A DNA stretch of 35,712 bases from an uncultured Akkermansia sp. (lineage in GTDB: Bacteria > Bacteroidota > Bacteroidia > B-17B0 > Aurantibacillaceae), in the NCBI GenBank assembly GCA_964566105.1, contig CAZMHW010000003.1, positions 1 through 35,712 on the forward strand, read 5' to 3'. The position numbers and the translations under genes were made by a program. Below, piece after piece: positions 14,765-35,712 of this stretch (position 1 is its first letter; each line of letters opens with the position of its first letter). The notes under the pieces are model-generated. The model worked only from the letters and a program-made list of their open reading frames with translations. It searched no databases and was not told where the DNA came from.

Positions 14765-14850
14765 CCATGGATTTACATGGTAAACAGTCTATGTATTTAC
14801 GTAAAAATGAAACTATGTAATCACATAGAAATGATTAGGTGAACACATAG
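14765..14850. promoter_or_regulatory. Four tandem palindromic boxes, consensus CTATGT-N4-ACATAG
   Basis: CCATGG-ATTT-ACATGG (14765), CTATGT-ATTT-ACGTAA (14789), CTATGT-AATC-ACATAG (14813, perfect), TTAGGT-GAAC-ACATAG (14835); periods 24, 24, 22 nt. Confidence 0.7.
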
Positions 14851-15031
14851 AAATAACTGCGCGTCTAGAAACTAAAACATTCCTAATCAACAATTTGTCC
14901 AAGTAAAGATACAAGCGTTGCTGGAGACGCACGTTTTAAAGGCTCGATAATAGATGTTTTAGATTTAATATTGCAAACAATTCCTTCAATAACTGGATTC
15001 CTTTTCACTTAAAATTCACATTCTTGCGAAC

Positions 15032-18000
15032 ATGAGAACAAAATCAACAATTTTAATAATTATCCTTTTACAGACTTTTCTGAAAGCTCAACAAGTCAAT
15101 CAGTTTACCGGAGCATTTAATTACAATGTACCTATTTTGAATTTACCCTCCGAAAGGGGACCTGGTATTAACATTGACGCTTCTTATAATTCTGGCATTC
15201 AAATGAATCAACCGGCCAGTCAGATTGGTTTAGGTTGGAGCTTAAACGCAGGAGGCGCTATTTACCGGCAAGTATCAGGATTTCCAGACGATATGCTTGA
15301 TTATGAATACATGGATATGATCAACAACAAGCAGATAAAAGGTCAGGGAGCAATGTATCTCACAACTTCAGGGTTGTCAGGTGCTATCGATTACGATTTT
15401 GTAAAAACGCAAAAAGGTCCTGCCATGGATACCGCTGAATTCACAACACCGGCTTTTGATATTTTTAATGTGAATGGTCCTGCTTTTGGCGGAAAAATGA
15501 AACTTTCTTATTTAAAATTCTATAGCTACCATTCACAAAATATGGGTACAAATTCTGTTCCTGAGTACAAAATGGTCCCCAACACCCAAAACTTAACCGC
15601 AAATAGCTTCCCCGGTTCTGGTTACTTCCGTAAACCTCAGTTTCACTTTACCGGTGATTTCGCTGACACTCTTGTTTCAAGACACTATTCAACAACGGTT
15701 AATAGTAGTACTCCATTTAGAATACCTTCTGACTTAGTCAGCCAGTTAGGTTATCCTGGAGGAAGCAGTGAGCCTTTTATAGGTAAACATTTAAATGGCA
15801 CTGCGGTGTCTAATCAAAATTACGATTTAAGTACAGGTAGGTTGGCTTCATCGAATTTTGTTGAATATTTCACAAACCAGGATATTAACTCAGCGAATAA
15901 TTCTGGTTTTGCGAGCGGGCCATTAACAACATTTATAGATTTTAGTAGTTCGCACGCAAGATCTTCCTCCAACTTTCCAGATGATGGCATTGGCTACTTT
16001 AGAATTACAGCTTCCAACGGTTTAACATATCACTATGCCCTTCCTGTTTACGAATCTCAGAGTTGTTCATTCAGCGCTCCTTTAAATTACAATTACTCCC
16101 TACCAACTTGTTTATCAGGAAGTCTTAATCCTTACGGAACGAATAATTCCTCACAAGGGTTACCCATAACCGGATCAAACATCTGGATCAAATACACCAA
16201 CGCTAATCGCTATGCTGTAAAATGGTTATTAACAGCCGTAACCGGTAGGGATTTTGTAGATATTAATAATAATCACATGGTCGACGATGGAGATGATGGC
16301 TACTGGATAAGCTATGATTATCAGCTATGGAATTCAAATCAAATACAAAGAAGTCCCTATTATGGCTATGATCATCAGTATTCTCCAGATGAAGCAACGG
16401 AACACTACCCTATTTATTACCCAATAGAACCATTATCAACAGGGGCACCTTACAAACTTTCAGGAGTGTATGGCACAGCCAGCATCTCTAAGACAGAAGA
16501 ATATTATTTAAAAAAAATAAGAAGTTCGAGTCACACAGCCATTTTTGTAATGGATTCAAGAAAAGATGAAAAAGGTGGTGATGTCGCAGACATTTCCGTA
16601 TCAACGTTTAAACCCGCACCTAGTCTTTTAATAAAGAGAATCATTCTTTTTAAAAACGAACAAATGGATTCTATAATTGGTGTAAACCCACCCAGCTTTT
16701 CTCAATCCAATTATTCAAACAACTCCCTATTCGATTTTTCACAGAATATAAATACAAGTTCAACATTTTTTACAGAAGCATGGTATCAACTTTACTCAAA
16801 TAACTGGAAATACTGCATTTTAAAAAACGTAGAATTTGATCAGGACTATTCCCTCTGTCCGAAATATCACGGTAATATAGAAGTGAAATGCAATGGAGCT
16901 GATCCTCTTACTAGTCCCAGCTCCGTGCAAGCAGCACTCTCGGTGGGGAACTACAGTTCAAGTGGTAAACTAACCTTAAAAAGAATTCTTACCTATGATT
17001 TTCAGAACATTAAATTAACTCCAAGCACTATATTTGACTACCAGAGCAATTTAACTAATGGGAATCCGGATTTTAACCCTATCAAAACAGATAACTGGGG
17101 CTACTTTAAATCTGATGCCAGCAACAATGGTTATAGTCGTTATACTACAGCAACTTCAAAAGATTACACAAAGGCCTGGAGTTTAAACAAAATTACCGAC
17201 CCATTAGGTGGTATAACCGAGGTGGAATACGAATCCAACTCATATAAGAAAGTAATTGATATTGAAAAGGGTACAAGAGGCCCGGTATTTATATACAGAA
17301 TTCAAGACGTAGACACTTTGCATAGCTATTTTGCCATCACCATGGAGGAAGGATCTAATGCCAGCTATCCGATGTCGGAGTTTCAGGCATTAAGCACAAA
17401 TACGTTAACCGGAATAAAAAGAAGCATTTGTATGCCTTTCGTCGCGGCCATCAATCCATCAACACCATCTGGGACGATTATACCATACACAGGTTTTGCC
17501 ATGGGTGACTGCACATTTACCGTGAACACCACTAATTCAGGCTATCCAACAAATCACGTAATGGGAAATATAACAAGTTCCAATAACGCTGTATATAATT
17601 CCACCAATTCAAGAATGTTCTCCTCAACGAATATTGATAACTACCTTTTACCTACAATACACTCAAGTCCTTATGGCTCTTATTACTACGATATGGCTTA
17701 CTCTGGAAACGGCTTCTTAATGATAGAAACACCCATCGGATTCGAAGCATTTGGAGGAGGCGTCCGTGTAAAAAACATAAAAACCCAAAACTCAACTAAC
17801 GAAATCTATGTGGAACAATACAGTTACGAAAACGGCGTAGCTGGCAACGAAATGGATCGCTTTGATTTTCAGGTTCAAAAAACTGGATGCGCGGGAAGTT
17901 TGAACCGCTACGATTTTATTAAACCCAAAAGCTACACTCTTTTTGACATGCTCCCAACCATTGGATACACTAAGGTAACCGTAAAGGATTTAGGACGCAT

Positions 18001-19762
18001 AAATACGGCCAATGGAAAAACAGAAACCACTTTCATAACTGATCCTGCCGATGAAAACGGCGCTTTTTCAAATAACTATTCCGCAAACACATTCACCAAT
18101 GTACTCGGTTCTTCTGATCAGCAAAAAATTTCCGAATTCCTGAATCAATTTTCAAGTGTTTTTGGCGCTGTTAAACAAACAATCGTCTATGATAAAAACG
18201 ACAATCAGATTTCGAAAACAGTAAACGAATACGAAGCTACTCAGCAGGGTGCCCTCTCGGAAGTTATTCATTTCGAAGATCCTTATTATTTTAATGGAGC
18301 TCTGCAAGCAACTGTACTTTCAAGCACTGTCAACATACTCAGAGACATCCCTGTCGTCCAAAAAAGCACCACGCACTACGGAATGGGAACTGTGAATAAA
18401 GTTGAAACTCTTCGCAGAGATGAATTAACCGGTGAAAGTACTACCATAAGAAATTCAGGTATAAATAAAAGCACTTCCATAGCATATAAAATCCCCGCTT
18501 ACAAGCAATACTTACCAATAGAAAGTCTTGATTTTACAAATGCAAATTCCAGAAAGATGATACCGTTTGGAGAAGACCTTTACACCTATTCAAATGTTGA
18601 CACCAGCTTAACCTCCAGTCAGGCCAATGGTTATTCGGCAAGCTTTCTTAACGCTTCCTATAGATTATACTCACGAGTTGTTCGTTTACTTCAGTACAGC
18701 GGCACCACCAATACACTAAGTGCGGCGCAATATACGTTACCTTATTACGTTAACAATCGTAATTTTTCATTTGATGCTGGCAACGGATCATTGGACCAGT
18801 ATGGTTTATTGAGAAAATCAAATCTTAATTCTAACCCATTAAATCTTGTTACAATAAATAACTCAGCTATCTGGGAACCATCCGGTACGTATAACTGGAA
18901 AATTGCGAATGAAGCCACTTTATACGACGATATGGACCGCATCATAGAATCGAGAGACGCGAATAACAGGTTCAAAGCAACCAGATATGGTTATAAAAAC
19001 TATTATGTAAATTCTCAGGTTAGCAATTGTAATTACTCAAGTTACACATTTGCCGATTTTGAGAATGCTGCTAATTCCGTCTCTAGTAACGGTACTGCAA
19101 GGTTTGATGGAGATATATTGGCTACAAATTACACCCAAGTAAATTATTCAACCATTACACCGCACACCGGATCAAAATGCATTTCCATTAGTTCATCGCC
19201 TTTAAAATTTATTTCATCGTCGTCAAAAAGTCCAGGTAACTCCCTCGATATGGGTCTACTACCGGGAAGAATTTATCGAGCTTCTGTTTGGGTAAATACT
19301 TCCAACTTATCTAATGCACTCATGTCCGTTAATATAGATGGTACAATAAATGGAACCACAAACTATTCGAATGCCTACTCCGCCAATTCAACAAATAATT
19401 TAGTAACCACCATAGGAAACTGGAACCTATTGCAGCTAGATTTTGAAGTACCTGAAGGTTTCTCGACCGGCAGTACTGGACAGTTTAAAATCGAATTAAA
19501 ATCTAATGGTGGCACTGTTTATTATGACGACTTCATTTTTTGTCCTGTCGAAAGTGATTTTTCGGCAAGTGTATACAATCCAAGAAATGGTCGCCTACTT
19601 TCAAGTATTGATGTTAATGGAATGGCTACTAACTATGTGTACGACGCCTCTGGTAGACCAACTGAGGTCTGGCAGGAAATCGCTCACGCAACTTCCACCG
19701 CGGGTTCATACAAACAAACAAGAAAAAAGACTTACAACTACGCGCGTGGCGCCAACAATTAA
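15032..19762 (+). CDS. Secreted SpvB/TcB-like YD-repeat protein with a C-terminal CBM-like domain, no RHS core
   Basis: Signal peptide; VNQFTGAFNYNVPI...SYNSG...SQIGLGWSLNAGG..RQVSGFPDD N-terminus; TDNWGY, ITDPLGGITEVEYE, GGGVRVKNI; YRASVWV...W..L..F...YYDDF; terminal IDVNGMATNYVYDASGR; no PxxxxDPxG. Confidence 0.85.
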   Translation: MRTKSTILIIILLQTFLKAQQVNQFTGAFNYNVPILNLPSERGPGINIDASYNSGIQMNQPASQIGLGWSLNAGGAIYRQVSGFPDDMLDYEYMDMINNKQIKGQGAMYLTTSGLSGAIDYDFVKTQKGPAMDTAEFTTPAFDIFNVNGPAFGGKMKLSYLKFYSYHSQNMGTNSVPEYKMVPNTQNLTANSFPGSGYFRKPQFHFTGDFADTLVSRHYSTTVNSSTPFRIPSDLVSQLGYPGGSSEPFIGKHLNGTAVSNQNYDLSTGRLASSNFVEYFTNQDINSANNSGFASGPLTTFIDFSSSHARSSSNFPDDGIGYFRITASNGLTYHYALPVYESQSCSFSAPLNYNYSLPTCLSGSLNPYGTNNSSQGLPITGSNIWIKYTNANRYAVKWLLTAVTGRDFVDINNNHMVDDGDDGYWISYDYQLWNSNQIQRSPYYGYDHQYSPDEATEHYPIYYPIEPLSTGAPYKLSGVYGTASISKTEEYYLKKIRSSSHTAIFVMDSRKDEKGGDVADISVSTFKPAPSLLIKRIILFKNEQMDSIIGVNPPSFSQSNYSNNSLFDFSQNINTSSTFFTEAWYQLYSNNWKYCILKNVEFDQDYSLCPKYHGNIEVKCNGADPLTSPSSVQAALSVGNYSSSGKLTLKRILTYDFQNIKLTPSTIFDYQSNLTNGNPDFNPIKTDNWGYFKSDASNNGYSRYTTATSKDYTKAWSLNKITDPLGGITEVEYESNSYKKVIDIEKGTRGPVFIYRIQDVDTLHSYFAITMEEGSNASYPMSEFQALSTNTLTGIKRSICMPFVAAINPSTPSGTIIPYTGFAMGDCTFTVNTTNSGYPTNHVMGNITSSNNAVYNSTNSRMFSSTNIDNYLLPTIHSSPYGSYYYDMAYSGNGFLMIETPIGFEAFGGGVRVKNIKTQNSTNEIYVEQYSYENGVAGNEMDRFDFQVQKTGCAGSLNRYDFIKPKSYTLFDMLPTIGYTKVTVKDLGRINTANGKTETTFITDPADENGAFSNNYSANTFTNVLGSSDQQKISEFLNQFSSVFGAVKQTIVYDKNDNQISKTVNEYEATQQGALSEVIHFEDPYYFNGALQATVLSSTVNILRDIPVVQKSTTHYGMGTVNKVETLRRDELTGESTTIRNSGINKSTSIAYKIPAYKQYLPIESLDFTNANSRKMIPFGEDLYTYSNVDTSLTSSQANGYSASFLNASYRLYSRVVRLLQYSGTTNTLSAAQYTLPYYVNNRNFSFDAGNGSLDQYGLLRKSNLNSNPLNLVTINNSAIWEPSGTYNWKIANEATLYDDMDRIIESRDANNRFKATRYGYKNYYVNSQVSNCNYSSYTFADFENAANSVSSNGTARFDGDILATNYTQVNYSTITPHTGSKCISISSSPLKFISSSSKSPGNSLDMGLLPGRIYRASVWVNTSNLSNALMSVNIDGTINGTTNYSNAYSANSTNNLVTTIGNWNLLQLDFEVPEGFSTGSTGQFKIELKSNGGTVYYDDFIFCPVESDFSASVYNPRNGRLLSSIDVNGMATNYVYDASGRPTEVWQEIAHATSTAGSYKQTRKKTYNYARGANN

Positions 19763-19772
19763 TCTACACATT

Positions 19773-20195
19773 ATGAAAAAAATAACCACTTTCATTTTAC
19801 TAATGAGCTGTTATTTGCTCAGTAGTCAGGCAAACTATTTAAACAGGATAAATATCATTAAGAATGATTCTACTCTGCAAGTGAACAACGGAGATAGTAC
19901 TTATATTTTTACCGCCAAAATTCTGACCCATGTTATAAATGGCATTAATTCTTTTAGCCTCACAAGCAAAACCTACAATCGTCAAAATTCCACGTGGATC
20001 ACGGACAAGGACACCAGTTATATCTGGTCGTCTATCACTTCCACCTCTAATACTAATCAGAATTACTCAACTTCTAAAGCTAACGACAATCTGACTGAAA
20101 TTTCTCTTGGAAGACAATATCCCGGCACCAGAAGGAAATTTATATTCACAGTGTCTGGCACTAATGGAACTTTAACTAAAGAATTCGACTTTTAA
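19773..20195 (+). CDS. Small secreted hypothetical protein (140 aa) between the two YD/RHS genes
   Basis: ATG 19773 gives signal peptide MKKITTFILLMSCYLLSSQA, 10 nt after the upstream stop and 5 nt before the next gene. Confidence 0.8.
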   Translation: MKKITTFILLMSCYLLSSQANYLNRINIIKNDSTLQVNNGDSTYIFTAKILTHVINGINSFSLTSKTYNRQNSTWITDKDTSYIWSSITSTSNTNQNYSTSKANDNLTEISLGRQYPGTRRKFIFTVSGTNGTLTKEFDF

Positions 20196-20200
20196 CCTGC

Positions 20201-23200
20201 ATGAAAAAAATATTCCTCATAACCGCCACCCTTATTCTAAACTACTTTTTAAAAGGGCAAACTTTTACGCTTAATTTACAGCCCACTTCTGGTGCAGGAA
20301 TTGACGCGAATGTACAAAGCAATAACCCAACTCTGAATCTGGGTTCAGAAGATGTTTTACGCTTCTCAAGAAGTACAACCGGAGTAAAAGAACGGTCATT
20401 TTTACAGTTCGATATTCATTCCTTACCTGCGGGAGTCGACATTATTTCAGCCAAATTGATACTCTATGGAGTAAATCATACCATTGTTAACTCCGGAAAC
20501 GGTATTTTACAATTAGTTCCGGATACCTGGTCTGAAAACACCGTCAATTGGAATATCTCAACCACTCTCAAAAATTCATCCATGCCAACCGTGAGCATAC
20601 CCTCTGCAACAAGCGTGGCTCAGAACTACACCCTCGACGTTAAAGAAATGGTACAAACCATGGTAAATACTCCACTCGTAAATTTTGGCTGGTTGCTTGC
20701 TATGGAAAATGAAAACGCTTCCAATAATAAAACCTATAGATTTGGATCCAGCGATAATTCTAACGCCAGTTTATGCCCAAAATTATCGATTACCTATTGT
20801 AATCACATGACCGTGAATGCATTTGTCGGCCCGGCAACCGGAACCACAACAAGTGACGCTGGCGTTGTATTAAATGTGACGGATGGCGTACCTCCCTATA
20901 CGTATCTCTGGAGCAATGGCGCTACCACTAAAGACATTTATAATGTTGCTCCCGGTTTATACACCGTTACGATAACAGATAACAGAGGCACACCGGTGAG
21001 TAAAATAATTCCGGTAGCAGGCAGTTGTGGAAGCCTCAGTTTTACTGTTCTGTATTCTGCCGGAGGTTTTAGCAACGCAAGACTAATTAATGAATCTTTC
21101 AACAGCAACACTGCCAATTCGAATTTCGTAAACACAACCTTGTTAAGGGCCAATAATATAAGTAGCGGTGGTGGAAATGTGATAACGCGAAGTTTAATGG
21201 CTTTTGATCTGAACGCCCTACCCAATAACGTTCAGGTAAACCAGGCCAATTTGATCTTAACAGATGATGAAGTAACACAAGCCAGCACCTTTAAAGTGCA
21301 GCTACGAAGAATAAATGACAATTGGAATCAACGTACTGTTACCTACAATGAACAACCGAGTTTTAATACAAGCTCGCAGGATTTAATCGATTTTAATTAC
21401 GATGGCAGTCAATCCAGTTATAACATTGATGTAACCACACATTTACAAACAATGATCGGTCAGGTTAATTCCTCTTTGGGTTGGGTATTGAAATTGGAAG
21501 ACGAATCTCCAACTGATGCTGGTATTTCAGCTTCTTTTAAAAATCCACAAATCGCATTGCAATTAACCATGCCCAGTTTCGCCTGCGACGATAATCTGTT
21601 GAACTGGAATCTGGAAGAAACATACGACGAAAATGGAAACATCATTTCCTCTGAAAAGTCTTACCTGGATAATCTTGGACGTTTAACTCAAAAGCTAGTT
21701 AAAAACGCCAGTAACGAAGTTTTCAGAACCCAAACTGTTTATGATAGTTACGGATTTGCTGCCGTAAATTCTTTACCAGCTTATTCCGGCAACCAGTTAA
21801 AATACCAGACCAATTTCATGCTCAATCAAAGTGGACAAGCTTACAGCTACACAGATTTTGACTCACCAGGCACATTAAATAATAATACGGCTCTTCAAAA
21901 CGGTGTATCAAATTCTCTTGGAAACTATTATAGCAACACAAACCCATACGATTCGTATCAGGCCATAGCAGATAACCCCTTCACACGAACAGAGACAACT
22001 GGCGCAGGTAGCAAAACCAGGGTTAGTAAACCAGGTAATGCTTTTAAAATGGGTAGTGGCAAAGAAACCATTTCTTTTAGCATGATTAGCGGCGACGAAT
22101 TGAAGTATATTTTCGGGACTACCGGATCAAACTACTATTCCTACAAGGTCACACAGAGTTCCACAAATGTAATGGATTATAACGCCATTCAGGTAACTGA
22201 GTACATTAAAGCCACAAAAAAAATAGTAATAACTCCCGACAATCCTGAAACGGTTACTTATAGCATAGGTGACAAATTAATTGCAAGTTGTTACAGTGGT
22301 TTAAGCACGGGCGAATCTTACTCCACTATTTCCGGAGTTACCAATTTAATGCTTTACAAAGGGTTAAAATGCACCGACATTCACCTCCCTTACGCTAACA
22401 GAACAAGCTTAAGTTTACCCTTACCACTCTCCATTCCGGGCAATTCATCAAGTGCTCCTTCTTTATCAGACATCTCCTACAGCATCACCGATTTACACAG
22501 AGATGTAAAACTTAACAACGGCACTGATTATACTATTGGATCAAATCAGGTAGTTACTTTTTCAACTGCTTTTCTTAACTTATATCTAAACAAATCCATG
22601 TGTTTAAGAATAAGTTACAGCTATAGTAATAGTTACCAAACCTACCTGACCACTAATTCACTTACGCCTGAAGATGCAAAAGTTGTATATGATTTAAAAT
22701 ACGGCCGGGCAAGTAAAAACTACTACGACCTGAGTGGGACTTTACGTAAAAGTGTCAGTCCCAAAGGGTTTGACATAACTAATCCCAATGTGAGCACCAT
22801 GGCAACAAGCTATGATTACAGTCATTTGGGCCAGCTAATCGGCGTAAAAAGTCCCGACGAAGGCTATACTCAAATGATCTATAACAAGGAGGGAAATCTG
22901 CGCTTTTCACAAAACGAAAAACAAAAGAATTCGAATTATTTTAGCTACATAAATTACGATAAACATGGTCGTGCTTACGAAAATGGCGAAAATCATACTG
23001 CGCGTGCAAATGGCAGCAGTGTTTCTTTTGTAAATTATTATGGTCAGGGAAACTTTATTAGTCCCGGAATATTCTCTTCCATCATTGTTGACCAACAGGA
23101 TGGTTTGTCTTCTTCAGAGAAAACAAATAAAACCGTTACCAGTTATATTGCACCCGCTGCCGGCTCCTCAGGTGATATTCCAGCGGCATACTCTTACATC

Positions 23201-26123: not shown

Positions 26124-26531
26124 ATGAAGAAGCTTTATTACAAAATAATGATTAGTTCAATTTACACAGCTCAACATAATGGTTTTATGAGTGATATATG
26201 GAAGTTTGCTTCCGGTTTTTACTTTGCTTTCGCGACTTCAATCTACTTGCTATTTTTTTATTTGTTTCTGAATAACTATATGTTGAATGATAAACTTGAT
26301 TTTTTCGTGTTACACATTCTTTCGGAAAAAAAGTATAATTTTATTTTGAACATATTCATTTATTTTATCGCTCCAATTATGGTATTGCATTATAGTATCT
26401 TTCTTGCTGATAATAAGTACAAAGCTTTGATCAAAGAGTATAAAGCGCAATACAATAAAAGGACTTTTGGTTGGTATTTTGCACTGGCAATAGTGATACT
26501 ATTTGCAAACTTATTCTTGAAAAAAAATTGA
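26124..26531 (+). CDS. Putative membrane immunity protein 1 (135 aa)
   Basis: ATG 4 nt after the RHS stop; three hydrophobic segments; AT-rich; position typical of a cognate immunity gene. Confidence 0.75.
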   Translation: MKKLYYKIMISSIYTAQHNGFMSDIWKFASGFYFAFATSIYLLFFYLFLNNYMLNDKLDFFVLHILSEKKYNFILNIFIYFIAPIMVLHYSIFLADNKYKALIKEYKAQYNKRTFGWYFALAIVILFANLFLKKN

Positions 26532-26559: not shown

Positions 26560-26985
26560 ATCACTTCCAATCAGGTTACTCAGTTAGCAAATATAGGTCT
26601 AGGTACAGCAGGGTTACTCCTTAATACGACGCAAGTAGCAGCATACAATGAAATATCGCAAACAGCCCGGAGAACCGGAAACATCGCAAACGCTTTATTA
26701 AGCAAATATTCTATTGATAAAACTATAGGAAAAGTTTCTCAAAAAGTTGGGTACGCTGGCGTGGCTATTAATGGATTAAATCTGGAATATAAATATACAA
26801 ATGGCAAAGATATTAAAACCCGTGATCTCGTGGATTTTGGTATCGGTGTAGCGCTATCTGTCATTGCAATTTCCAACCCTATTGGAATTATTGCATTAGG
26901 AATTTATGGTTTAGCAGATGCTTATGGCGCTTTCGATGGATTAAAAGAAGAATATTTAGGACAAACGGTAATACCTGGAAAATGA
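26548..26985 (+). pseudogene. Orphan RHS C-terminal tip cassette 1 (start-less, 145 aa)
   Basis: Open from SGGGITSNQVTQLANIGLG to the stop at 26985; shares RDxxD and SNPIG with the intact tip; 438 nt vs 441 nt. Confidence 0.8.
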
Positions 26986-27383
26986 CGATTATGATGAATT
27001 TTTTTGAATATAGTTGTTATTACTTATTTCGTTTTCTAATGAGAAAAGGGAAAAGTTATGAAACAGCCAAGACAGCTGCTGTATTATATATATCAGCTTC
27101 TATTTTCTTTTTCTTTTTATCAGCAACGCTATTTTTAAGATTTGTAGATTTCAAAAGTGAGAAATTTATTTTTAAATCTGTCGGCTTGGTTATTGCTTTT
27201 TTATTCTACGGTTTTTTTCATTACAGAATAGAAAAAGATAGCAAATTTAAAAAAATTATAGAGCGATATGAAAATATAGATTCCGAACCCTATCCGAAGA
27301 CAGCTGTTTGGAGTTTAGTTCTAGGTGGAATTGTTTGCTTTTGCTTATCCATTGTCGTAATGGCAATAATCAGTCGTAAATAG
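26982..27383 (+). CDS. Putative membrane immunity protein 2
   Basis: ATGA overlap with orphan tip 1; three hydrophobic segments; KFKKIIERYE parallels KYKALIKEYK of immunity 1. Confidence 0.75.
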   Translation: MTIMMNFFEYSCYYLFRFLMRKGKSYETAKTAAVLYISASIFFFFLSATLFLRFVDFKSEKFIFKSVGLVIAFLFYGFFHYRIEKDSKFKKIIERYENIDSEPYPKTAVWSLVLGGIVCFCLSIVVMAIISRK

Positions 27384-27404
27384 TTCTTTTACGTTAATAC
27401 AACT

Positions 27405-27422
27405 CCTCAAAGTGGCGGTGGG
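27405..27422 (+). repeat. Cassette junction motif, copy 3
   Basis: CCTCAAAGTGGCGGTGGG, 21 nt after the immunity 2 stop. Confidence 0.75.
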
Positions 27423-27850
27423 AGAATGTCCCAATCTGGTTTGGAAACACTACATCTGCCAAGAGTTTTGCAGTCGGACACACTGAAACAGGCATGCGTA
27501 TGTCAGCAAAGCAAACATTTAAGTGTGTACAGTATGATGGTAAAGTCAGATCAGCCGTAACTTTGACGAAGGCAAATAGGATAAACTCGTTGGGTACAGC
27601 AAAAGTACTTGAAACAACCGGCAGATTTCTCGCTGGCGCGTCTGGAGTTATTACCGTAGTGGACGGCATAACAAACGATGAAGGTTGGCAAAATCATCAC
27701 ACCGCAGACTTAACAATTACAGCAGGAGTATCTGTTCTTTCTGCATCTGTTCCGGTAGCTTGCTGGATAGTGGGAGCTGTTTTTTTGGCAGCTGATATAA
27801 CATCTCAAGTTACAACTGGACAATCATTCACTCAAAATTTATTTGATTAA
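27408..27850 (+). pseudogene. Orphan RHS C-terminal tip cassette 2 (1-nt frameshift directly after QSGGG)
   Basis: Adding one G at 27420-27422 gives QSGGGENVPIWFGNTTSAKSFAVGHTETGMRMSAKQ... through to 27850; Gly/Ala-rich hydrophobic end (ADLTITAGVSVLSASVPVACWIVGAVFLAAD) resembles the other tips. Confidence 0.75.
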
Positions 27851-27862
27851 TATTAATTATCT

Positions 27863-28231
27863 ATGTATAATTTTTTTTATTGTTATATCTATAAATTAAC
27901 AAATAAAGGGAGCAAAAACTCCAAAACAGACTCTATCAATTTTGTCGCTTTCACAGTTGTTGTTCATTTGGGATTATTTTTTGCATGTCTAAAGAGAATT
28001 TTTGATCTGCACTACCCTTTTTTTAGTAATGTTTATTTCTACAACAAACTGTTTTTAGCCCCCTTTGCTTTTATTTGGCTTTTGCTAGTATACTTGTATT
28101 ATAAGAAAAATTCTGATAAAATTCTCGAAAAATTAAGTGCTAAAATTGTTGTTAACACAAAAAACACTATTCTTGTTTTTTCAGCGTTACTAATTCCACT
28201 AATTATTATTATACTACTGTTAAAAAAGTAA
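27863..28231 (+). CDS. Putative membrane immunity protein 3
   Basis: 122 aa, three hydrophobic segments, starts 12 nt after orphan tip 2; N-terminus MYNFFYCYIYK resembles MNFFEYSCYYL of immunity 2. Confidence 0.75.
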   Translation: MYNFFYCYIYKLTNKGSKNSKTDSINFVAFTVVVHLGLFFACLKRIFDLHYPFFSNVYFYNKLFLAPFAFIWLLLVYLYYKKNSDKILEKLSAKIVVNTKNTILVFSALLIPLIIIILLLKK

Positions 28232-28440
28232 TTTAATGTAACGCTGATAGCGACTTTAAAATTCAGGATAAAAAATAGATGCTTCAATCTCCTAAAATTC
28301 AGATTTAAAATACTTAAAAATTGAGCGTGAAAGTATACCTATAGATTCTATTAACAACCGATGTACTTATTAGATTCTGAATGTACTCCATTGTTGTACC
28401 ATCCATTTCCTGAGTCAAGATAAAAGTTCATTTTAACAAT

Positions 28441-30138
28441 CTATTTCGTTATAATTACCTTTTTTGTAACCGAACCAGATTCTCCCTGTCCTATCAAAAA
28501 ATAAATTCCCGCAGGTAAATTTGTCACATTCATCAATGTGTCTTCTTCCCTACGGACAGAGGTCTCTGACACCAGTTGACCCAGGTTATTAACCAGGGTA
28601 AATTGCATATCGGTATTTGCACGTAAGGTAAACTCGCCTGCATTCGGGTTAGGATACACAAGCAGTGTCAATTGATTTTTACTTCTATTTTCTGAGATAC
28701 CCGTAATAAGTTGTGGGCCTAATTTAATAAGATACATATCCAGTGACCCAACAGGAGCCAGACTATCACTTTGATTGAGATCGGGATCAAAATCACAGAT
28801 TCCGGTGTAATACCCCGTACTGTAAACAGCGCTGTGATTGTCTGTGCAGATAGACCCGGGAACTATACCTCCGACGCGTGTATGCATTGCTTCTGCCCAC
28901 ACAAAGTCACCATTTGGATCTAACTTTAAAATGTAGGCATTTCCACTGTTAAGCCCGCTTGAAATCCCCAGCGTGTAGGTTCCTGAACTCGGGTCGAAAT
29001 CTGTCAACACAGAATAATAACCGGTGGAATAAATGTTTCCTGAGTTGTCAAGGGCAATCGAATTGGCCTGTCCGGTGGAGTTAATAGATTTCACCCAAAC
29101 AAAATTTCCCTGGGCATTTAATTTAGAAATAAAGAAACCTCCGCCGGTCAAAGTATAAGTTCCTGCACCCGGGTCAAAATCTGCCGTGCCTGCATAGTTG
29201 CCAGTTGTGTATACATTTGCGTTTGCATCCAGAGTTAATCCTCGAGAACCATCGGCTCCGGTTCCACCCTGAGCTATGGCCCAAACAAAATTACCTGAAG
29301 AATCTAATTTTGAAACAAAACAGTCATTAGAGCCTACCGGATTTAGTGTATAGGTCCCCACTCCGGGATCAAAATCTATTGTGTTTGAAAAAGTGCCTGT
29401 GGTATATACATTACCAGAAGCATCCACCGACATACCGGTAATAAGCTCGTTCGTAGCACTTCCCATTCTTTTCGCCCAGATAAAATTGCCTGACGGATTG
29501 AATTTAGATACAAAAAAATCGAAACCGCCGTTTGAATTGAGAGTATAAGTGCCTGCACCCGGATCAAAATCCACAGAATTACTGTTATATACTCCAGCAA
29601 CATAAACATTTCCCAGTGGGTCCAAAGCAATTGCTTCACCCTGATCGTTACCAGTCCCTCCAATCCGGTTGGCCCAAACAAAATTACCAGCAGCGTCAAG
29701 TTTGGAGACAAAAATATCCAATGCGGCACTTCCTTGCAACGTATAAGTTCCTGGACCCGGATCAAAATCCGCACTTAAATTCACATAACCTGTTATAAAA
29801 ACATTTCCGGAATTATCTACCTTAATCGATCTGCCGGCATCTGAATAACCAATGGCCTCTATTTGCTTTGCCCAAATTAGGTTACCGAGCGAGTCTTGTT
29901 TCAAAATAAAAACATCGCTTCCTCCAGCGGAAGTTAAGTTAAAAACTCCCTGGCCCGGGTCAAAATCCACAACATCCTGAAAGGCTCCGATGGTGTATAC
30001 ATTTCCGGAATTATCAGTAGTGATGGAGTTACCAACATCCACCGAAACCCCACCCACACTCCTCGCCCATTGTAGGTTCTGCGAAGAAAGTGGTGTTTTA
30101 AAAAAGGAAATTAATCCGATTAAGAATAGTTTTTTCAT
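28441..30138 (-). CDS. SBBP beta-propeller repeat protein with T9SS type A sorting domain
   Basis: Seven DFDP repeats with GNVYxTG and SKLDxxGNFVWA units; CTD VYPNP...NNLGQ...LPAGIYF...KKVIITK. Confidence 0.92.
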   Translation of the reverse strand: MKKLFLIGLISFFKTPLSSQNLQWARSVGGVSVDVGNSITTDNSGNVYTIGAFQDVVDFDPGQGVFNLTSAGGSDVFILKQDSLGNLIWAKQIEAIGYSDAGRSIKVDNSGNVFITGYVNLSADFDPGPGTYTLQGSAALDIFVSKLDAAGNFVWANRIGGTGNDQGEAIALDPLGNVYVAGVYNSNSVDFDPGAGTYTLNSNGGFDFFVSKFNPSGNFIWAKRMGSATNELITGMSVDASGNVYTTGTFSNTIDFDPGVGTYTLNPVGSNDCFVSKLDSSGNFVWAIAQGGTGADGSRGLTLDANANVYTTGNYAGTADFDPGAGTYTLTGGGFFISKLNAQGNFVWVKSINSTGQANSIALDNSGNIYSTGYYSVLTDFDPSSGTYTLGISSGLNSGNAYILKLDPNGDFVWAEAMHTRVGGIVPGSICTDNHSAVYSTGYYTGICDFDPDLNQSDSLAPVGSLDMYLIKLGPQLITGISENRSKNQLTLLVYPNPNAGEFTLRANTDMQFTLVNNLGQLVSETSVRREEDTLMNVTNLPAGIYFLIGQGESGSVTKKVIITK

Positions 30139-30256
30139 CCTGATGTAATATTAAATTGGGTTGTAGAAAAAGTGCTTTAAAATTCGACATAAAGATAATA
30201 TTTATTTGAATAAATTAATACCTGTGCTTTTGCAAACCCAATCAAATACCTACTCG

Positions 30257-30700
30257 TTATTTCTCAACCACCACCGGCCTCGCCTGCAATTCCCTTACCT
30301 CCACCGAACCATCTTGTTCTAAGACCGGACAACGTTTTGCCAGATTTAAGGCCTGTTCCAGGTCCATGGCATGTACGATGATGTTGCTGACTTCCTTTAA
30401 ACCGCCGCTGGTTGTTACGTATTCTTTTTTGCTGTTTTTTTGGGCATCCAACACCACGTAGCCCGGGTTAGGAAAAATATAACTGGTAACAAAAATGCCC
30501 TCCGCTTTCCATTGGTCGGTAAGTGCATTCCATTGAGGCCGAACGGCTGTGGCGTCATCCTTACTGTATACTTCGGGTACCCTGACAATTAAGATAAATT
30601 CTTTCATGGTGTTTTGATTTTTGGTTAAACTGTTTTGTGAATACATCCAAAAGCCTTGTAACAGAAAGGCCAAGAGGACAAGTTTTCTTTTTGTGTACAT
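30257..30700 (-). CDS. YciI/YCII-related protein with signal peptide
   Basis: MKEFILIVR...KEVSNIIVHAMDLEQALNLAKRCPVLEQDGSVEVREL. Confidence 0.8.
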   Translation of the reverse strand: MYTKRKLVLLAFLLQGFWMYSQNSLTKNQNTMKEFILIVRVPEVYSKDDATAVRPQWNALTDQWKAEGIFVTSYIFPNPGYVVLDAQKNSKKEYVTTSGGLKEVSNIIVHAMDLEQALNLAKRCPVLEQDGSVEVRELQARPVVVEK

Positions 30701-30719
30701 CTGTAAAAATTTGATGCGA

Positions 30720-30727
30720 CAAAATTA
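30720..30727 (-). promoter_or_regulatory. Bacteroidota -7 promoter element
   Basis: TAATTTTG on the minus strand, 19 nt before ATG 30700. Confidence 0.6.
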
Positions 30728-30766
30728 GTCCAGGTAAAAAAGAAAGGCTTGTAAAAAATCAGTGAT

Positions 30767-31540
30767 TTAGCGTAGGGGGAATTTTTTCAGATACTCCGTC
30801 GGACTTTGTCCGGTAAATACTTTGAATTCCCTATTAAAATGGGCCTGGTCGTAATAGCCAGCTTCGTAAGCAGTATCCAAAAAGACGGGATTCTTTTTTA
30901 GTTTAACCAGCACTGCTTTCATGCGTACCAAAGAAGCAAAACGTTTGGGACCCGTACCCACACATTTACGAAAGCGTTTTTCAAAAGCATCCTGACTGAT
31001 GTAAAGATCTTTACTCAGCTCTTTGATGCTCACATTTCCCTGAGCAGCTTTTATTTTTTGAATCGCGGCTTGCACCAGAGCATCCTGTTCGGGGTATTTT
31101 AAAGATTTCAAGAGAAAATCATTGACTAAATCCACGCGTTCTTTATGCGAAACGGCCGAAGACAGTTTTTCGCCCATGCGTTCTATTTCATAACGATCAA
31201 AAATCTGATCAAGCGGCAGTGTTTGCTCAAATAAATAATGCAGGGGCTCCCGGGTGAAAGCTGAAACACCAGCTTCGTTAAACTGCACTACCATGTTTGA
31301 TGTCTGTTTCTGATAGCTCACGTAACGGGGAGAAGGACGTAAGCCGGAAACGATAGCCCCCGGCAAGTCAAATGCCTTGTTATTTTCTACCTGGTTTACC
31401 TTGCCTTTAAAGACATAGGCCATAGTCAGTGCCGTATCTGGCAACAAGGAATTTTCCCAACCCTCCCCACTCTCAATAATGCGGACTCCTTTTACATAAG
31501 GACTAAGGACAGACAAAGGCTTGTGTGACTCAAAAAACAT
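30767..31540 (-). CDS. AraC-family transcriptional regulator
   Basis: GNVSIKELSKDLYISQDAFEKRFRKCVGTGPK...AYEAGYYDQAHFNREFKVFTGQSPTEY. Confidence 0.93.
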   Translation of the reverse strand: MFFESHKPLSVLSPYVKGVRIIESGEGWENSLLPDTALTMAYVFKGKVNQVENNKAFDLPGAIVSGLRPSPRYVSYQKQTSNMVVQFNEAGVSAFTREPLHYLFEQTLPLDQIFDRYEIERMGEKLSSAVSHKERVDLVNDFLLKSLKYPEQDALVQAAIQKIKAAQGNVSIKELSKDLYISQDAFEKRFRKCVGTGPKRFASLVRMKAVLVKLKKNPVFLDTAYEAGYYDQAHFNREFKVFTGQSPTEYLKKFPLR

Positions 31541-31582
31541 GTTACAAATCTAGCTGATATTTTTCTTTTTACCGTAAAACCC

Positions 31583-31625
31583 ACTATGTATTCACCCAGT
31601 AGTTTACTATGTGTTTACCCAGTAG
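31583..31625. promoter_or_regulatory. 20-bp direct repeat (period 23) containing CTATGT-N4-ACCCAG boxes
   Basis: ACTATGTATTCACCCAGTAG (31583) and ACTATGTGTTTACCCAGTAG (31606), 18/20 identical; TAAATTTG -7 element follows at 31646-31653. Confidence 0.7.
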
Positions 31626-31687
31626 ATTCTTTTGGTGGAATAGGTTAAATTTGAAAAGAGGCGATAAGGCTGCCAACCCACGTAACA

Positions 31688-32440
31688 ATGAAAAAGTCAA
31701 TTTTAATTCCGTTAGTTCTTGTATACTTTTTGCTGGGATCAACCGGCAGCCAGATTCGTGCGCAAACCGGCATTGAACCGTCTAAACTGAAACAGTTCAA
31801 CATCACCGTTAATTACGAAGACTACACGGTTAAAACCCAGATGCTCAGCCAACCGAAGAACATTAGTGTAAACAACGAGCGTATGTACCTCTGGTATGCT
31901 TCCCAGAAAATTATGGAAACCAAGGGTGGTTTTGACGGTAAATTAATTCATGGTACTTACAGGGCTTTTTACCTGAATAATCAGTTGAAAGAGAAAGGTG
32001 AGATCAGGTACGGTTTAAAACACAAGGAATGGAAATACTGGTACCCCGATGGCAAACTCCGCGAAGTGATTAATTGGAAAAACGGCGTAAAGAACGGTAA
32101 ATATTACCTCTACAACGATTATGGTCAACTGATGGCGCAGAGCCGGTTTAAGGACGACAAACTCAATGGCAATTTTTACACCTATAACGCCAATGGTAAG
32201 GTTATTGATAAAAAGCGTTATAAACACGGAGATGAAATTCCCGAAAAAATAAAAGCCCGGAAACCTAAGGAAAAAAAAGTTAAAAAACCGAAAACCGAAA
32301 AGGCGCCGGAAGTTAAACCCGAGCAACAAAACTCTGAAAACAAAAAGCCCTTTCTGAAAAACATTTTTAAAAAGAAAACAAAAAAAGAAAAAGAGGAAAA
32401 ACCCAAAGATCCCGAAAAAAGAAAAGTGATCAACTCTTAA
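31688..32440 (+). CDS. Secreted MORN-variant repeat (YwqK-like) protein with Lys/Glu-rich tail
   Basis: Signal peptide; repeats HGTYRAFYLNNQLKEKG, HKEWKYWYPDGKL, NGKYYLYNDYGQL, NGNFYTYNANGKV. Confidence 0.85.
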   Translation: MKKSILIPLVLVYFLLGSTGSQIRAQTGIEPSKLKQFNITVNYEDYTVKTQMLSQPKNISVNNERMYLWYASQKIMETKGGFDGKLIHGTYRAFYLNNQLKEKGEIRYGLKHKEWKYWYPDGKLREVINWKNGVKNGKYYLYNDYGQLMAQSRFKDDKLNGNFYTYNANGKVIDKKRYKHGDEIPEKIKARKPKEKKVKKPKTEKAPEVKPEQQNSENKKPFLKNIFKKKTKKEKEEKPKDPEKRKVINS

Positions 32441-32449
32441 TTGTTTAAC

Positions 32450-33784
32450 ATGCCAAAAACAAATGGTATAACTCTTTTACATGTTGTAGTCCGTAAATTC
32501 AGTTGGGCCTTACACTCCCCTGCAAAAAAAGGAACAGGGCTGTATGTGAAAGGAGGGGCATTGTACATCTCCATCCTGGTAAGCATTCTCATTGGCATCA
32601 CCCTGAGTTTATTTATCCTCCTTGGCAATTACAATCAACGCACCGTAACCGTTCTGGCACAGGACTCGCAGCTCTATTTTAATCTTAAAAGCGCGTTTCA
32701 ATTAGCACAGTCCGCTTATTTTAGTCAGGAACAAAACAATACCTGGATCAAAAACCAGTTGAACGACGATTCGATTAAAGTAAAAAAAATAAACTGGGGT
32801 GCGTATCTCATTATCTGCGCACAAAGTAAAAACAGACACCACTCCCTTTCCCAGTCGGGATTGTTTGGCACGTATATGAGTGCCGACACAGGTCTTATGG
32901 TTTCCGATAACAGCAGACCGGTTGGTTTGAGTGGCAGTATTCGCTTTCAGTCCAATTGTTATCTACCCCGTGCGGGCATTAAACCCGCGTACATTGAAGG
33001 GCAAAGTTACCAGAGCTCAAGCAACAACGGAACGTTTTTAAAAGCGTCTCCCAATCAAATTCCCCAACTCGATCCAAAGCTCGTAAAAGCCCTGAAAGAG
33101 GAGCAGGAAGGCTTAAACGTATACCTGGATTCGTTGGTTTCGTATGCACCCCCAGTCTATAATCAGGCTTTCGAAAAAAAAACACTGGTCTGTCAGCTTA
33201 ACACCACTCAACTCAGTCAGCTGCGCCTTAAAAATAACATCAAACTTATTTGTGGGGCAGTAGACATTGATAGCTCCTGTCACTTTGAGAACATTTTGAT
33301 CATTTGTAAAAAAGCCAGGTTTAAACAAGGCTTCAAAGGACAGGTGCACGTGATTGCCAGCGATAGCATCAGCATGGAAAGCAACTGTGAATTTCAATAC
33401 CCCTCCTCTTTTGTGCTTCTGCCGGATCAAAGCTCAGGTACTACATTTAACTCCATTCAATTTAATAAAGACTGTAAATTTTCAGGAGGTGTTTTGGCGG
33501 TTAACGAAACAAGCAGGTCAGAGAACAGCCAAAAAGTTTTTATTAAGTTACATGCCGGCTCAGAAATAAATGGTCTGATCTATTCCAGTGATTACGTTCA
33601 CCTGGAAGGTCAGCTCAACGCAAGTACCATCGCCAACAAACTCCTTTTAAAAACACCTTCAGCGGTTTACGAAAATCATATACTCAGTTGTGAGATCAAT
33701 CCAAAAAAATACGGCAGTTTAATGGCAGTGCCTTTGCTTTTTGATCAACGGGACAAATTACTTTGTTGTGCGAATTTAAATTAA
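32450..33784 (+). CDS. PilX/GspK-like large minor pseudopilin candidate; start uncertain (32441, 32450 or 32546)
   Basis: KG|GALYISILVSILIGITLSLFILL prepilin-like helix lacking Glu5; first of three pilin-like genes preceding gspF. Confidence 0.65.
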   Translation: MPKTNGITLLHVVVRKFSWALHSPAKKGTGLYVKGGALYISILVSILIGITLSLFILLGNYNQRTVTVLAQDSQLYFNLKSAFQLAQSAYFSQEQNNTWIKNQLNDDSIKVKKINWGAYLIICAQSKNRHHSLSQSGLFGTYMSADTGLMVSDNSRPVGLSGSIRFQSNCYLPRAGIKPAYIEGQSYQSSSNNGTFLKASPNQIPQLDPKLVKALKEEQEGLNVYLDSLVSYAPPVYNQAFEKKTLVCQLNTTQLSQLRLKNNIKLICGAVDIDSSCHFENILIICKKARFKQGFKGQVHVIASDSISMESNCEFQYPSSFVLLPDQSSGTTFNSIQFNKDCKFSGGVLAVNETSRSENSQKVFIKLHAGSEINGLIYSSDYVHLEGQLNASTIANKLLLKTPSAVYENHILSCEINPKKYGSLMAVPLLFDQRDKLLCCANLN

Positions 33785-34140
33785 TGAAAAAAAAGAAACA
33801 TAGCGTTTTAAAAGGCAGTTCCATCGTGGAAGTACTCATTGCACTCGCCATAACCAGTTTTTGCGCCAGTCTTGCCGTAGTGATTTATCTGAACATTCAG
33901 AAAAGCTCGCTTCCCTTTTTTAAAATAAAAGCAGTGGAACTGGCCGAGTACTATATGAAAGAAACACTGGAAAAGAGAAGTTTCCAGGATGAAACCTATA
34001 AGGCAGAAGAATTCTCCGTAAAAAAGTCGCTCGCTACTTCAGAATCCTTTCCGGATTGTTTAAATCTAAGAATCATTGTGTTTGATAACTCTAAAAAGAA
34101 GCTGCATGAACTTGAAACACTTGTGTATAAAGGGAACTAA
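33784..34140 (+). CDS. Prepilin-type minor pseudopilin (GspI/PilV-like)
   Basis: LKG|SSIVEVLIALAITSFCASLAVVIY with Glu5; TAATG overlap with the upstream stop. Confidence 0.8.
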   Translation: MKKKKHSVLKGSSIVEVLIALAITSFCASLAVVIYLNIQKSSLPFFKIKAVELAEYYMKETLEKRSFQDETYKAEEFSVKKSLATSESFPDCLNLRIIVFDNSKKKLHELETLVYKGN

Positions 34141-34143
34141 TAA

Positions 34144-34650
34144 ATGAACATAAAAAGAAATAGAATGCATCTAAAAGGATTTACCATCGCCGAACTGCTG
34201 GTGGTGCTCATCCTGACCTCTATTTCCATTACACTCTCCTACTCCACCCTTACCTACGTGCAAAAATTATTCAGCGCCTACAAAAACTCCAATAAATTTT
34301 TAAACGAATGGAGCGATCTTAAAAAACGTCTGGATTTTGAATCCATGAAAGCCGAACGCGTGACGGAAGAAAAAGAAAACTATTTCAGGATCAGCAGAGA
34401 TACTGTAGACAGTTGGCTTGAAATCAAAGAAAAACTAATTCTTTTAAAACATCGGGAAACCTGCGACACCTTTCACATAGAAGTAAAAAATCTGAAAAAA
34501 AAATACGAAGTCCTGCAAAATCCCCTGTGGGCAAATAAACTATTAACGGAATTACAATTTGAAACGGACTACAGTAAACAGAAATTTATTTTTTCATTCA
34601 TTAAACAACATTCTGCCGCACTTAAATTAAAACTCGAACAAAACCCTTAA
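34144..34650 (+). CDS. Prepilin-type N-terminal cleavage/methylation protein (GspJ/PulJ-like)
   Basis: LKG|FTIAELLVVLILTSISITLSY. Confidence 0.88.
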   Translation: MNIKRNRMHLKGFTIAELLVVLILTSISITLSYSTLTYVQKLFSAYKNSNKFLNEWSDLKKRLDFESMKAERVTEEKENYFRISRDTVDSWLEIKEKLILLKHRETCDTFHIEVKNLKKKYEVLQNPLWANKLLTELQFETDYSKQKFIFSFIKQHSAALKLKLEQNP

Positions 34651-35712
34651 ATGTCAGGAATAGACCTTTCAAAATATACAGAACAACACGTTTTTCAGAA
34701 AACGCCTTCAAAAACCTTGGATGCAGAGGGCTTATCAGGCCTTTTGAATACCGAAATTTCATTTTTTGAAAAGAAATTCGGAGCTAAAGAAAAGGAAGGA
34801 TTTTATTCGGAATTAGGCTTATTACTCTCCACCGGTGTCGATATTAAAACAGCTTTCGAGATCATTGAGGAAGACATCCCCAACAAAAAACACAAATTAC
34901 TTCTGGAACAAATAAAGAACGACATCATCAGCGGGATGCGGATTTATGAAGCAGTTTCAAAACATGAAAAAGTTTTTAGCAAATACGAAGCGCAAAGTAT
35001 TAAGATTGGGGAAGAAACCGGCAAATTAGCGGATGTGCTGAAGGAGCTCGGTTTGTTTTATTTATCAAGCATTAAATTAAGAAGACAAATAATCGGTGTG
35101 ATGACTTACCCGGTGGTGGTTATCAGCATGGCCATTCTGATCGTATATTTTATGCTCTCCTTTGTGGTTCCCATTTTCAGTGATATTTTTACGCAGACCG
35201 GAGGAGAGCTTCCTGAGATCACCCAGTTTCTGATCCGGCTCAGTCACAAAAGTTCGGCCATTTTTTACACACTCTTCTCGCTCATCGGAATTCTGGTGTT
35301 AGTGCACAAAACCCAAAACAAAAAAGAATGGTATCGCAAATACACATCAGCCTTCTTTTTAAAAATACCTGTGATCAATAAACTCATTCAAAAAATTTAC
35401 CTGGCACGATTTTGCCAGAGCATGAAACTGCTCTCAGGAGCAAAGGTGATGATTAACGAAGCACTAGACCTTGTGAAAAATATGATAGAATATTATCCTA
35501 TGGAATTCGCGCTGGAAAGTGTAAAGAACGAAGTGGTAAAAGAAGGAAAACTTTTAAATGAAAGCCTGGCCAGGCACAGCATTTTTCCGAAAAAACTCGT
35601 CGCCCTTATTAAACTCAGTGAAGAAGTGAACGCACCGGAAGTGATCTTCGAAAAATTACACCAGCAGTACTCCGCGGAGATAGAACATCAACAGGCCGTA
35701 GTAGGCAAACTC
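34651..35712 (+). CDS. gspF: Type II secretion system F family / PilC inner-membrane platform protein (3' truncated by the window edge; absent from the ORF track)
   Basis: Own translation from ATG 34651: FYSELGLLLSTGVDI...IKIGEETGKLADVL...MTYPVVV...FVVPIFSDIF...GGELPEITQFL...LARFCQSMKLL. Confidence 0.92.
   Translation, partial: MSGIDLSKYTEQHVFQKTPSKTLDAEGLSGLLNTEISFFEKKFGAKEKEGFYSELGLLLSTGVDIKTAFEIIEEDIPNKKHKLLLEQIKNDIISGMRIYEAVSKHEKVFSKYEAQSIKIGEETGKLADVLKELGLFYLSSIKLRRQIIGVMTYPVVVISMAILIVYFMLSFVVPIFSDIFTQTGGELPEITQFLIRLSHKSSAIFYTLFSLIGILVLVHKTQNKKEWYRKYTSAFFLKIPVINKLIQKIYLARFCQSMKLLSGAKVMINEALDLVKNMIEYYPMEFALESVKNEVVKEGKLLNESLARHSIFPKKLVALIKLSEEVNAPEVIFEKLHQQYSAEIEHQQAVVGKL

Follow-up and report, generated by a model that had tools for sequence, protein, structure and literature searches.

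The window analysed here is the whole contig CAZMHW010000003.1 (C3; 35,712 nt) of an uncultured member of the Bacteroidota, whose genome (G000) is 82% complete in 839 contigs; genomes, contigs and loci are cited below by G, C and L numbers. On its forward strand lie an operon predicted to encode a two-chain Rhs toxin and, starting 3457 bp after the last putative immunity gene, an operon for a type II secretion system (T2SS)-like machine, in whose gspF gene the contig ends. An earlier note on this DNA had proposed that the toxin is exported by this machine, and we examined the proposal by comparison across the class Bacteroidia.

The first gene of the toxin operon (15032-19762) encodes a TcB-like YD protein of 1576 aa with a signal-peptide-like N-terminus, an SpvB-like N-domain and an RHS shell. 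An AlphaFold2 model of residues 20-1150, derived from a 38-row alignment, reached a pLDDT of 82.6 and a pTM of 0.86, and its top Foldseek matches were YenB and TcdB2 (E 2e-14 to 2e-11), at a TM-score of only 0.27. Further structural matches, at Z 12.7 to 8.3, were to Rhs cores and to the SpvB N-domain (the latter at Z 8.3), and a PDB sequence search with the YD profile returned nothing specific. A close homologue of this protein is carried by a Bacteroidia metagenome-assembled genome, which, like the type IX secretion cargo genes and sprA of the window genome, indicates that the DNA comes from this class. The second gene (19773-20195) encodes a protein of 140 aa with a signal-peptide-like start and no match in the family scans; a gene of similar size separates YD and Rhs in related loci. 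The third gene (20201-26119) encodes a TcC-like Rhs protein of 1972 aa, composed of a signal-peptide-like N-terminus, two DNRLRE/CBM96 domains, an SprB repeat and an Rhs core. The core matched TIGR03696 at 40 bits against a cut-off of 32.5 and, in a PDB sequence search, a mosquito SGS protein. The family scan gave no match to the integrin-like propeller family on a window protein.

The N-termini of the YD, small and Rhs proteins, called as signal peptides from a hydropathy heuristic without SignalP, each combine a basic start with a hydrophobic nine-residue core (mean hydropathy 3.1, 2.4 and 2.7, respectively), in line with the Sec signal peptides that the earlier note had seen on all three. 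At the predicted mature start of the YD protein, a glutamine is near-invariant across 22 homologues. The same note had found on them no C-terminal domain (CTD) belonging to a type IX secretion system (T9SS), and this was borne out: the profiles Por_Secre_tail, CHU_C, TIGR04183 and TIGR04131 had no match on the three proteins, their C-terminal pieces were negative even at E ≤ 10, and both CTD types were detected on other window genes, which served as positive controls. On these grounds the three proteins do not qualify as T9SS cargo with a type A or B CTD of their own. An Rhs effector delivered through a type VI secretion system (T6SS) was rejected, given the signal-peptide-like N-termini and the absence of VgrG, PAAR and Eag families, already remarked on before, from the two sets of 18 and 14 window open reading frames scanned (not every frame). 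The VgrG family PF04717 had no match in the 82%-complete genome, and its controls matched; TssC, DUF4280 and TcA (PF18276) had none in the same genome, where no control matched either.

In the Rhs protein, a DPDG motif at position 1572 is followed by a C-terminal tip of about 400 aa with hydrophobic helices at its end, predicted to be a membrane-active toxin. A putative cognate immunity protein with three predicted transmembrane segments is encoded directly downstream (26124-26531). Two further pairs follow: orphan tip 1 (26761-26985), weakly like the Rhs tail and with a stop-free frame reaching further upstream, with putative immunity protein 2 (26982-27383; weak Bfi1 match, E 6e-5, far below the cut-off); and orphan tip 2 (27494-27850; weak Bfe1 match, E 5e-5, below the cut-off, and 40% identity with the Rhs tail over 81 aa) with putative immunity protein 3 (27863-28231; Bfi1, E 0.085). 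Both orphan tips are thus similar to the Rhs tail, and the three small transmembrane proteins form a putative immunity set. Tips vary between homologous loci, and the window combines a variable tip, a downstream immunity gene and orphan tip/immunity pairs, as polymorphic toxins do. This gene content points to a TcB/TcC-like two-chain polymorphic toxin, whose predicted activity is probably antibacterial.

The secretion operon begins with a gene for a MORN-repeat protein (31688-32440), a regular member of such clusters, followed by a GspK-like large minor pseudopilin without family match, assigned by position and conservation (32441-33784), two minor pseudopilins with weak N_methyl motifs (33763-34140 and 34144-34650) and the gspF/pilC platform gene truncated by the contig end (34651-35712; PF00482, E 4e-33; TIGR02120, E 3e-54, below cut-off). 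From the last immunity gene to the GspK-like gene and gspF the distances are 4210 and 6420 bp; the spacing of about 3.5 kb noticed before corresponds to the MORN start. The components that the earlier note had suggested looking for past the window (GspE, secretin, GspG and prepilin peptidase) were all found on other contigs, plus L-, M- and C-like genes: C700 carries gspG together with the peptidase and a regulator of the NarL/LuxR type, C233/C298 carry gspE, C298 also has the secretin gene with the L/M-like ones, and the C-like gene is on C328. The peptidase was identified via its similarity to a weak Peptidase_A24 gene of the complete genome G001, and the order of C3, C233 and C298, which no sequence overlap joins, was taken from the same genome. 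A T2SS-like set of the kind derived from type IVa pili (T4aP) is present, with a secretin, one assembly ATPase, a platform, major and minor pilins and a peptidase (C298, C233, C3 and C700). In the 82%-complete genome, PF00437 matched a single GspE/PilB gene, in its two halves, and no PilT was found. The canonical T2SS equivalogs TIGR02517, TIGR02533, TIGR02120 and TIGR01710 all scored below cut-off, GspE and GspF having been scanned as partial proteins, and the best NCBIfam match of the major pilin was a type IV pilin.

Two further YD-Rhs cassettes are encoded in the genome. One, longer than that of the window and spread over C537, C376, C755, C178 and C266, probably sits inside the secretion cluster, judging by synteny with G001. 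The other, on C5, is of a different, barrel type described below.

The promoters of the two window operons carry similar boxes, a resemblance first reported in the earlier note. Three 16-bp near-palindromic copies (14789-14850; consensus CTATGT-N4-ACATAG) precede the toxin operon and two copies 23 bp apart precede the secretion operon (31584-31622, forward strand). The pattern CTATGTRWTYAC has six matches in the window, every one in one of these promoters, against 0.06 expected, and the box precedes gspE too. A box matrix, partly circular since it was built from G001 and G015 sites picked using the pattern first seen in the window, placed the promoters of the YD gene, gspE, the MORN gene, the C537 cassette and C266 at eight of the nine top matches in the genome, the barrel-type cassette on C5 falling outside the top 45. 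In a non-circular test, the best common 14-mer of the YD, MORN and gspE promoters had two mismatches in total and was equalled by one of 2998 random promoter triples. The box recurs at the corresponding promoters in G001, G015, G010, G018, L057, L058 and L061; no intergenic match was found in G429, G498, G521 or L055, and no box cluster in G021, so the box is lineage-limited. The NarL/LuxR response regulator gene (C700:921-1571, L254) faces the prepilin peptidase gene in convergent orientation and also occurs in several related loci; no cognate kinase was seen adjoining it on C700. The boxes are likely response-regulator binding sites that this regulator likely reads, and the toxin and secretion operons are likely co-regulated.

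Metagenomes from wastewater and activated sludge are listed as containing near-identical DNA; contigs from four runs cover the stretch piecewise and none spans it, so that the join between toxin and gspF rests on the present assembly and on other genomes. We drew an even sample of 301 Bacteroidia genomes and searched it with a YD profile of 17 N-terminal sequences, whose builders include four sample genomes and G000; a phylum-wide gspF search, dominated by other classes, was left out of the counts. Matches to gspF were found in 47 genomes and YD matches in 100, the YD family occurring in 44/47 gspF-positive versus 56/254 gspF-negative genomes. One unpublished genome, G352, adds one each to the 47, 44 and 100 (43/46 without it) and enters no linkage claim. 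A YD gene lies on the same contig and within 35 kb of gspF in at least 28 of the 47 genomes, at a median distance of 16 kb, where chance would give about 1.9. Cluster regions were inspected in 18 of the remaining 19: YD or Rhs genes adjoin the cluster in seven, about seven clusters run into a contig break or stop close to one (an OmpH gene being adjacent in one case), partial or decayed clusters are seen in G289 and G319, and G474 has a gspF without cluster. Of the 11 gspF-positive genomes among 41 relatives, 10 carry a YD homologue, which in seven of them shares the contig and is close. The co-occurrence and spacing that had been put forward earlier as a check on the export proposal thus revealed linkage to signal-peptide YD/Rhs cassettes over many families, and the association of the machine with YD/Rhs toxins is real and widespread.

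The arrangement itself differs from genome to genome. A YD-small-Rhs unit of the window type lies inside the cluster in G521 and directly after gspF on the same strand in G368 and G468, and YD-Rhs genes lie within or adjoining the cluster in G085, G256 and G228 (f12 genomes). Divergent short YD genes (1100-1400 aa) with Rhs genes stand beside it in G477 (L201-L202), G382 (L203-L204), G256 and G228. G318 and G145 have 18 and 13 YD matches and one gspF each, so one machine may serve many cassettes in trans.

The subtype to which the window belongs, delimited with a full-length YD profile in a scan that scored only two candidates per genome, was found in 18 of the 301 genomes, 17 of them gspF-positive; at E < 1e-60, all 13 were, from eight families. 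The lone gspF-negative genome, G033, is 99% complete without gspF or secretin, and its match is a 172-aa piece, followed by transposase-like frames, of a window-type YD gene that is broken up there (L134:7580-9865), which looks like decay following loss of the route. Window-type copies unlinked to the cluster are also nearly all in gspF-positive genomes, and in the stretches examined around such copies in G498, G317, G330, G386, G468 and G145 there is no barrel or CTD-like gene. Beyond the subtype, 56 of the 100 YD-positive genomes have no gspF, and 54 of these have no secretin match at all, which shows that the machine is not needed by the entire toxin family.

In such gspF-negative genomes, YD cassettes usually open with a gene of 650-1000 aa for which no Pfam family was found (none common to 30 members). 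As exemplified by L150-L179, they are found 2-5 kb upstream of YD genes and mainly where a genome lacks the T2SS-like cluster, and one opens the C5 cassette of G000 (L001, L002). The modelled fold (pLDDT 75.8) is that of an outer-membrane barrel with about 26 strands, into which a helical hairpin is inserted. Its structural matches are generic, namely MtrB (Z 15.0, rmsd 6.4, 391 aligned), PapC (Z 12.3), FimD (Z 12.1) and TonB-dependent receptors; a PDB sequence search gave nothing specific and the ESM Atlas only unnamed Bacteroidota clusters.

We surveyed the barrel in 80 genomes with strong YD matches, leaving out 20 weak-match or unpublished ones, and found it in 34/41 gspF-negative versus 6/39 gspF-positive genomes. 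The first figure was initially 31 and rose to 34 when a deeper profile was applied to the flanks of nine of the ten gspF-negative misses; the whole gspF-positive genomes were searched with the first profile only. Five of the six gspF-positive barrels stand beside a YD gene on a contig other than that of gspF, the sixth being that of G085. Within-family contrasts of barrel versus gspF ran in the same direction in eight of ten cases, with two ties. Of 115 YD loci, T2SS genes are present at 35 and a barrel gene at 10; no locus combines the two, and at 70 the DNA covered shows neither. Machine and barrel thus nearly exclude each other. In the YD tree, barrel-linked genes fall in one subclade, intermixed with T2SS-linked genes, and none in the 28-row clade of the window. 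An approximately unbiased test did not reject a single origin of the barrel-linked YD genes, as opposed to repeated route switching (p 0.077).

Two outer-membrane devices therefore alternate beside one family of CTD-less, Sec-type toxins, and each is best explained as its exit. We infer that the window toxin probably leaves the cell via the neighbouring, likely co-regulated type II-like machine, and that exporting such toxins is likely the main role of this machine in Bacteroidia. The earlier proposal of exit through the machine is partly supported, by the linkage, the box and the confinement of the subtype, and does not extend to the 56 YD-positive genomes without gspF. In the mechanism that we propose, Sec would carry both chains across the inner membrane, and a periplasmic hand-over would follow, in which the OmpH/Skp chaperone encoded in long cassettes may take part. 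The pseudopilus, with the one GspE/PilB ATPase found, would then drive passage through the secretin, the tip would be freed at the DPDG core and the released toxin would kill neighbours. The two chains sum to about 400 kDa, which would also be the size of the complex that the earlier note had supposed to assemble in the periplasm before export. Given how large Tc shells and secretin channels are, a closed shell seems doubtful as the form that passes, and it is more likely that the chains traverse the secretin one by one or in a partly folded state. The OmpH/Skp gene likewise suggests chaperoned, separate export. In cassettes without the machine, the barrel would provide the alternative outer-membrane exit. 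A wider proposal, whose chances we place a little short of even, is that the Bacteroidota "T2SS" is an independent T4aP-derived system dedicated to two-chain Rhs toxins and that the barrel of about 26 strands is a second, interchangeable channel.

Several observations weigh against export by the machine. The genomes counted include kin and are not independent, so that Fisher p-values overstate the significance, and both barrel profiles were trained mostly on gspF-negative genomes. G027 has a complete cluster with no Rhs gene in its flanks, and the cassettes of G344 and G454 have neither machine nor barrel, those of G451 and G388 being ambiguous. T2SS genes were seen at only 16 of 76 metagenome loci, whose flanks reach at most 10 kb and are often shorter. 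Around the nearest YD homologues, L055, L056/L059 and L060, flanks of at most 10 kb show no T2SS gene; L058, whose YD protein is 45% identical to that of the window, has T2SS genes in its flank. In Cytophaga hutchinsonii, t2s mutants are described as having cellulose-growth defects with little change in supernatant bands (Wang 2017; PMC5553014). Finally, the T9SS is always available, GldN being found in 58 of the 60 genomes tested and sprA in the window genome, and the opening gene of long cassettes, of both machine and barrel type, encodes a protein with weak resemblance to a T9SS CTD at its C-terminus.

These last two points also sustain the strongest alternative, in which the toxin chains leave through the T9SS, piggy-back on a CTD carrier such as the first gene of the long cassettes or the cargo encoded at 28441-30138, and the machine or barrel only anchors, displays or pushes the toxin targetward. 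T9SS cargo genes flank many loci, and this route has been proposed for Apibacter SpvB-Rhs proteins (PMC8125069) and TANFOR toxins (PMC7073777). In the window, two true cargo genes flank the toxin region: 6926-11311 (type B CTD, DUF7948, PKD) and, about 200 bp past the last immunity gene, 28441-30138. The latter, on the reverse strand and convergent on the toxin operon, encodes an SBBP beta-propeller protein with a true type A CTD and probably does not belong to that operon; it is the first of three unrelated minus-strand genes that separate the toxin and secretion operons, on which the earlier note was silent. As for the first genes of the long cassettes, TIGR04183 matched three of ten, all below cut-off, and one has a CHU_C-like end. 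They terminate in a conserved immunoglobulin-like domain (L037:17459-19684, L040:1142-3883, L137:7637-8761 and others), possibly a divergent sorting signal. No such gene was found within the window operon, nor in the G521 unit. Moreover, GldN is so nearly universal that its presence cannot separate the routes, and a universal T9SS leaves unexplained both the confinement of the window subtype to gspF-positive genomes and the mutual exclusion of barrel and machine. We consider this route unlikely. In G477 and G382, GldN matches were below cut-off, and these genomes may offer a natural test of T9SS-free export.

Less probable still is that the machine forms a filament, derived from T4aP, with which the cell makes contact or takes up DNA or nutrients of neighbours that it has killed, and that the toxin is co-regulated with it as part of a competition module without being exported by it. 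Any common function would fit the co-regulation and linkage, the Bacteroidetes system branches with T4aP (PMC6668835), and the best match of the major pilin is a type IV pilin. However, no PilT-type second ATPase was found in the 82%-complete genome, and a role in uptake predicts neither a barrel replacing the machine beside the toxin nor OmpH in the cassette. A purely historical link, with both gene sets on one mobile island and the window operon beside the cluster by chance, would account for the three unrelated genes between the operons, for the absence of a window-type operon at the corresponding place in G001 and for the patchiness of the cluster (47/301), but appears very improbable, as linkage is kept over many families despite highly variable gene order, unlinked window-type copies are also almost confined to gspF-positive genomes, and the window toxin promoter bears the box of both secretion operons.

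Export by the machine, our preferred reading, has precedents, and the earlier statement that no characterised example exists was too strong. A cluster of about 35 kb in Flavobacterium psychrophilum CC-ST10 combines T2S genes, BC-domain genes and OmpH, is lineage-specific, and a dedicated translocation was suggested for it (Duchaud 2018; PMC5808330). That work treats one lineage and takes the cluster as a possible virulence trait; the class-wide linkage, the tips and immunity genes, the regulon and the barrel come from the present analysis. In Xanthomonas perforans, the activity of Bcn-A is lost in an xpsD mutant and thus needs the canonical T2SS secretin (PMC7259588). Like the window toxin, Bcn-A is a large antibacterial Rhs/YD protein with an immunity gene, but it is a single chain of 1398 aa and uses the general Xps T2SS of Proteobacteria.

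In its components, namely D, E, F, G and O with minor pilins and L/M/C-like proteins, the machine corresponds to the Bacteroidota "T2SS" of C. hutchinsonii (CHU_3191-3202) and F. johnsoniae (Fjoh_0611-0622), and the gene order in G133 and G240 follows the F. johnsoniae locus tags of Table 2 in that paper, the comparison being one of gene order only (PMC5553014). No direct substrate is identified in its text, whereas our analysis proposes a class of substrates, a box in the promoters and a second route. The term "Rhs" is absent from the main texts of this paper and of PMC6668835. In the open-access literature, as far as titles and the first parts of abstracts go, neither the box nor the barrel nor the linkage across the class was found described; supplements and subscription papers may contain such a report. 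Kharade and McBride are said to have found, in 2015, the products of Fjoh_0601-0606, beside Fjoh_0611-0622, in spent medium, these proteins lacking CTDs.

On the toxin side, the window proteins share with the Tc BC components (YenB-YenC, TcdB2-TccC3) the YD fold, the SpvB-like N-domain and a partner Rhs core with DPDG and a variable tip, but differ by their signal-peptide-like N-termini and downstream immunity-like genes, besides the low TM-scores. The TcdB/TcaC-type and "T2SS/Sec-dependent" toxins of Zhang (2012; PMC3482391) likewise combine a signal peptide, an SpvB domain and RHS repeats in Bacteroidetes; there, in the text available, "T2SS/Sec" is a default label without signature neighbours, whereas here a specific machine is linked. 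TANFOR (PMC7073777) and Apibacter SpvB-Rhs toxins (PMC8125069) resemble the window toxin in having a signal peptide, no CTD of their own, a polymorphic tip with immunity gene and T9SS cargo nearby. Their assignment to the T9SS was made by neighbourhood, as a hypothesis, and the window proteins have no TANFOR match.

If the wider proposal is correct, toxins aimed at other bacteria would have two secretion routes so far unrecognised, in a class believed to depend on the T9SS and T6SS. Our preferred reading challenges the default assignment of signal-peptide Rhs toxins in Bacteroidota to the T9SS. The Bacteroidetes "T2SS", grouped with T4aP and considered possibly a new secretion system by Denise (2019; PMC6668835), whose text names no direct substrate, would gain a substrate class, a box and a candidate regulator. 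The survey also reveals a large outer-membrane barrel family without known function, found where the machine is missing.

Some minor features complete the description. In the genome of the window, a strong box copy at C266:1525 precedes a gene whose product looks secreted; this gene, which lies downstream of an Rhs tip and immunity gene, is possibly a further member of the box regulon. At window positions 12621-14110, a small frame that we take to be ferredoxin-like overlaps a presumably U32-family-like gene, both unrelated to the toxin and the machine. In most clusters, the M-like and C-like genes have between them a gene for a lipoprotein-like protein of about 320 aa with no clear family (C298:118-1080, L257), and the MORN gene neighbours the K-like gene in most of them; both are candidate system-specific subunits.

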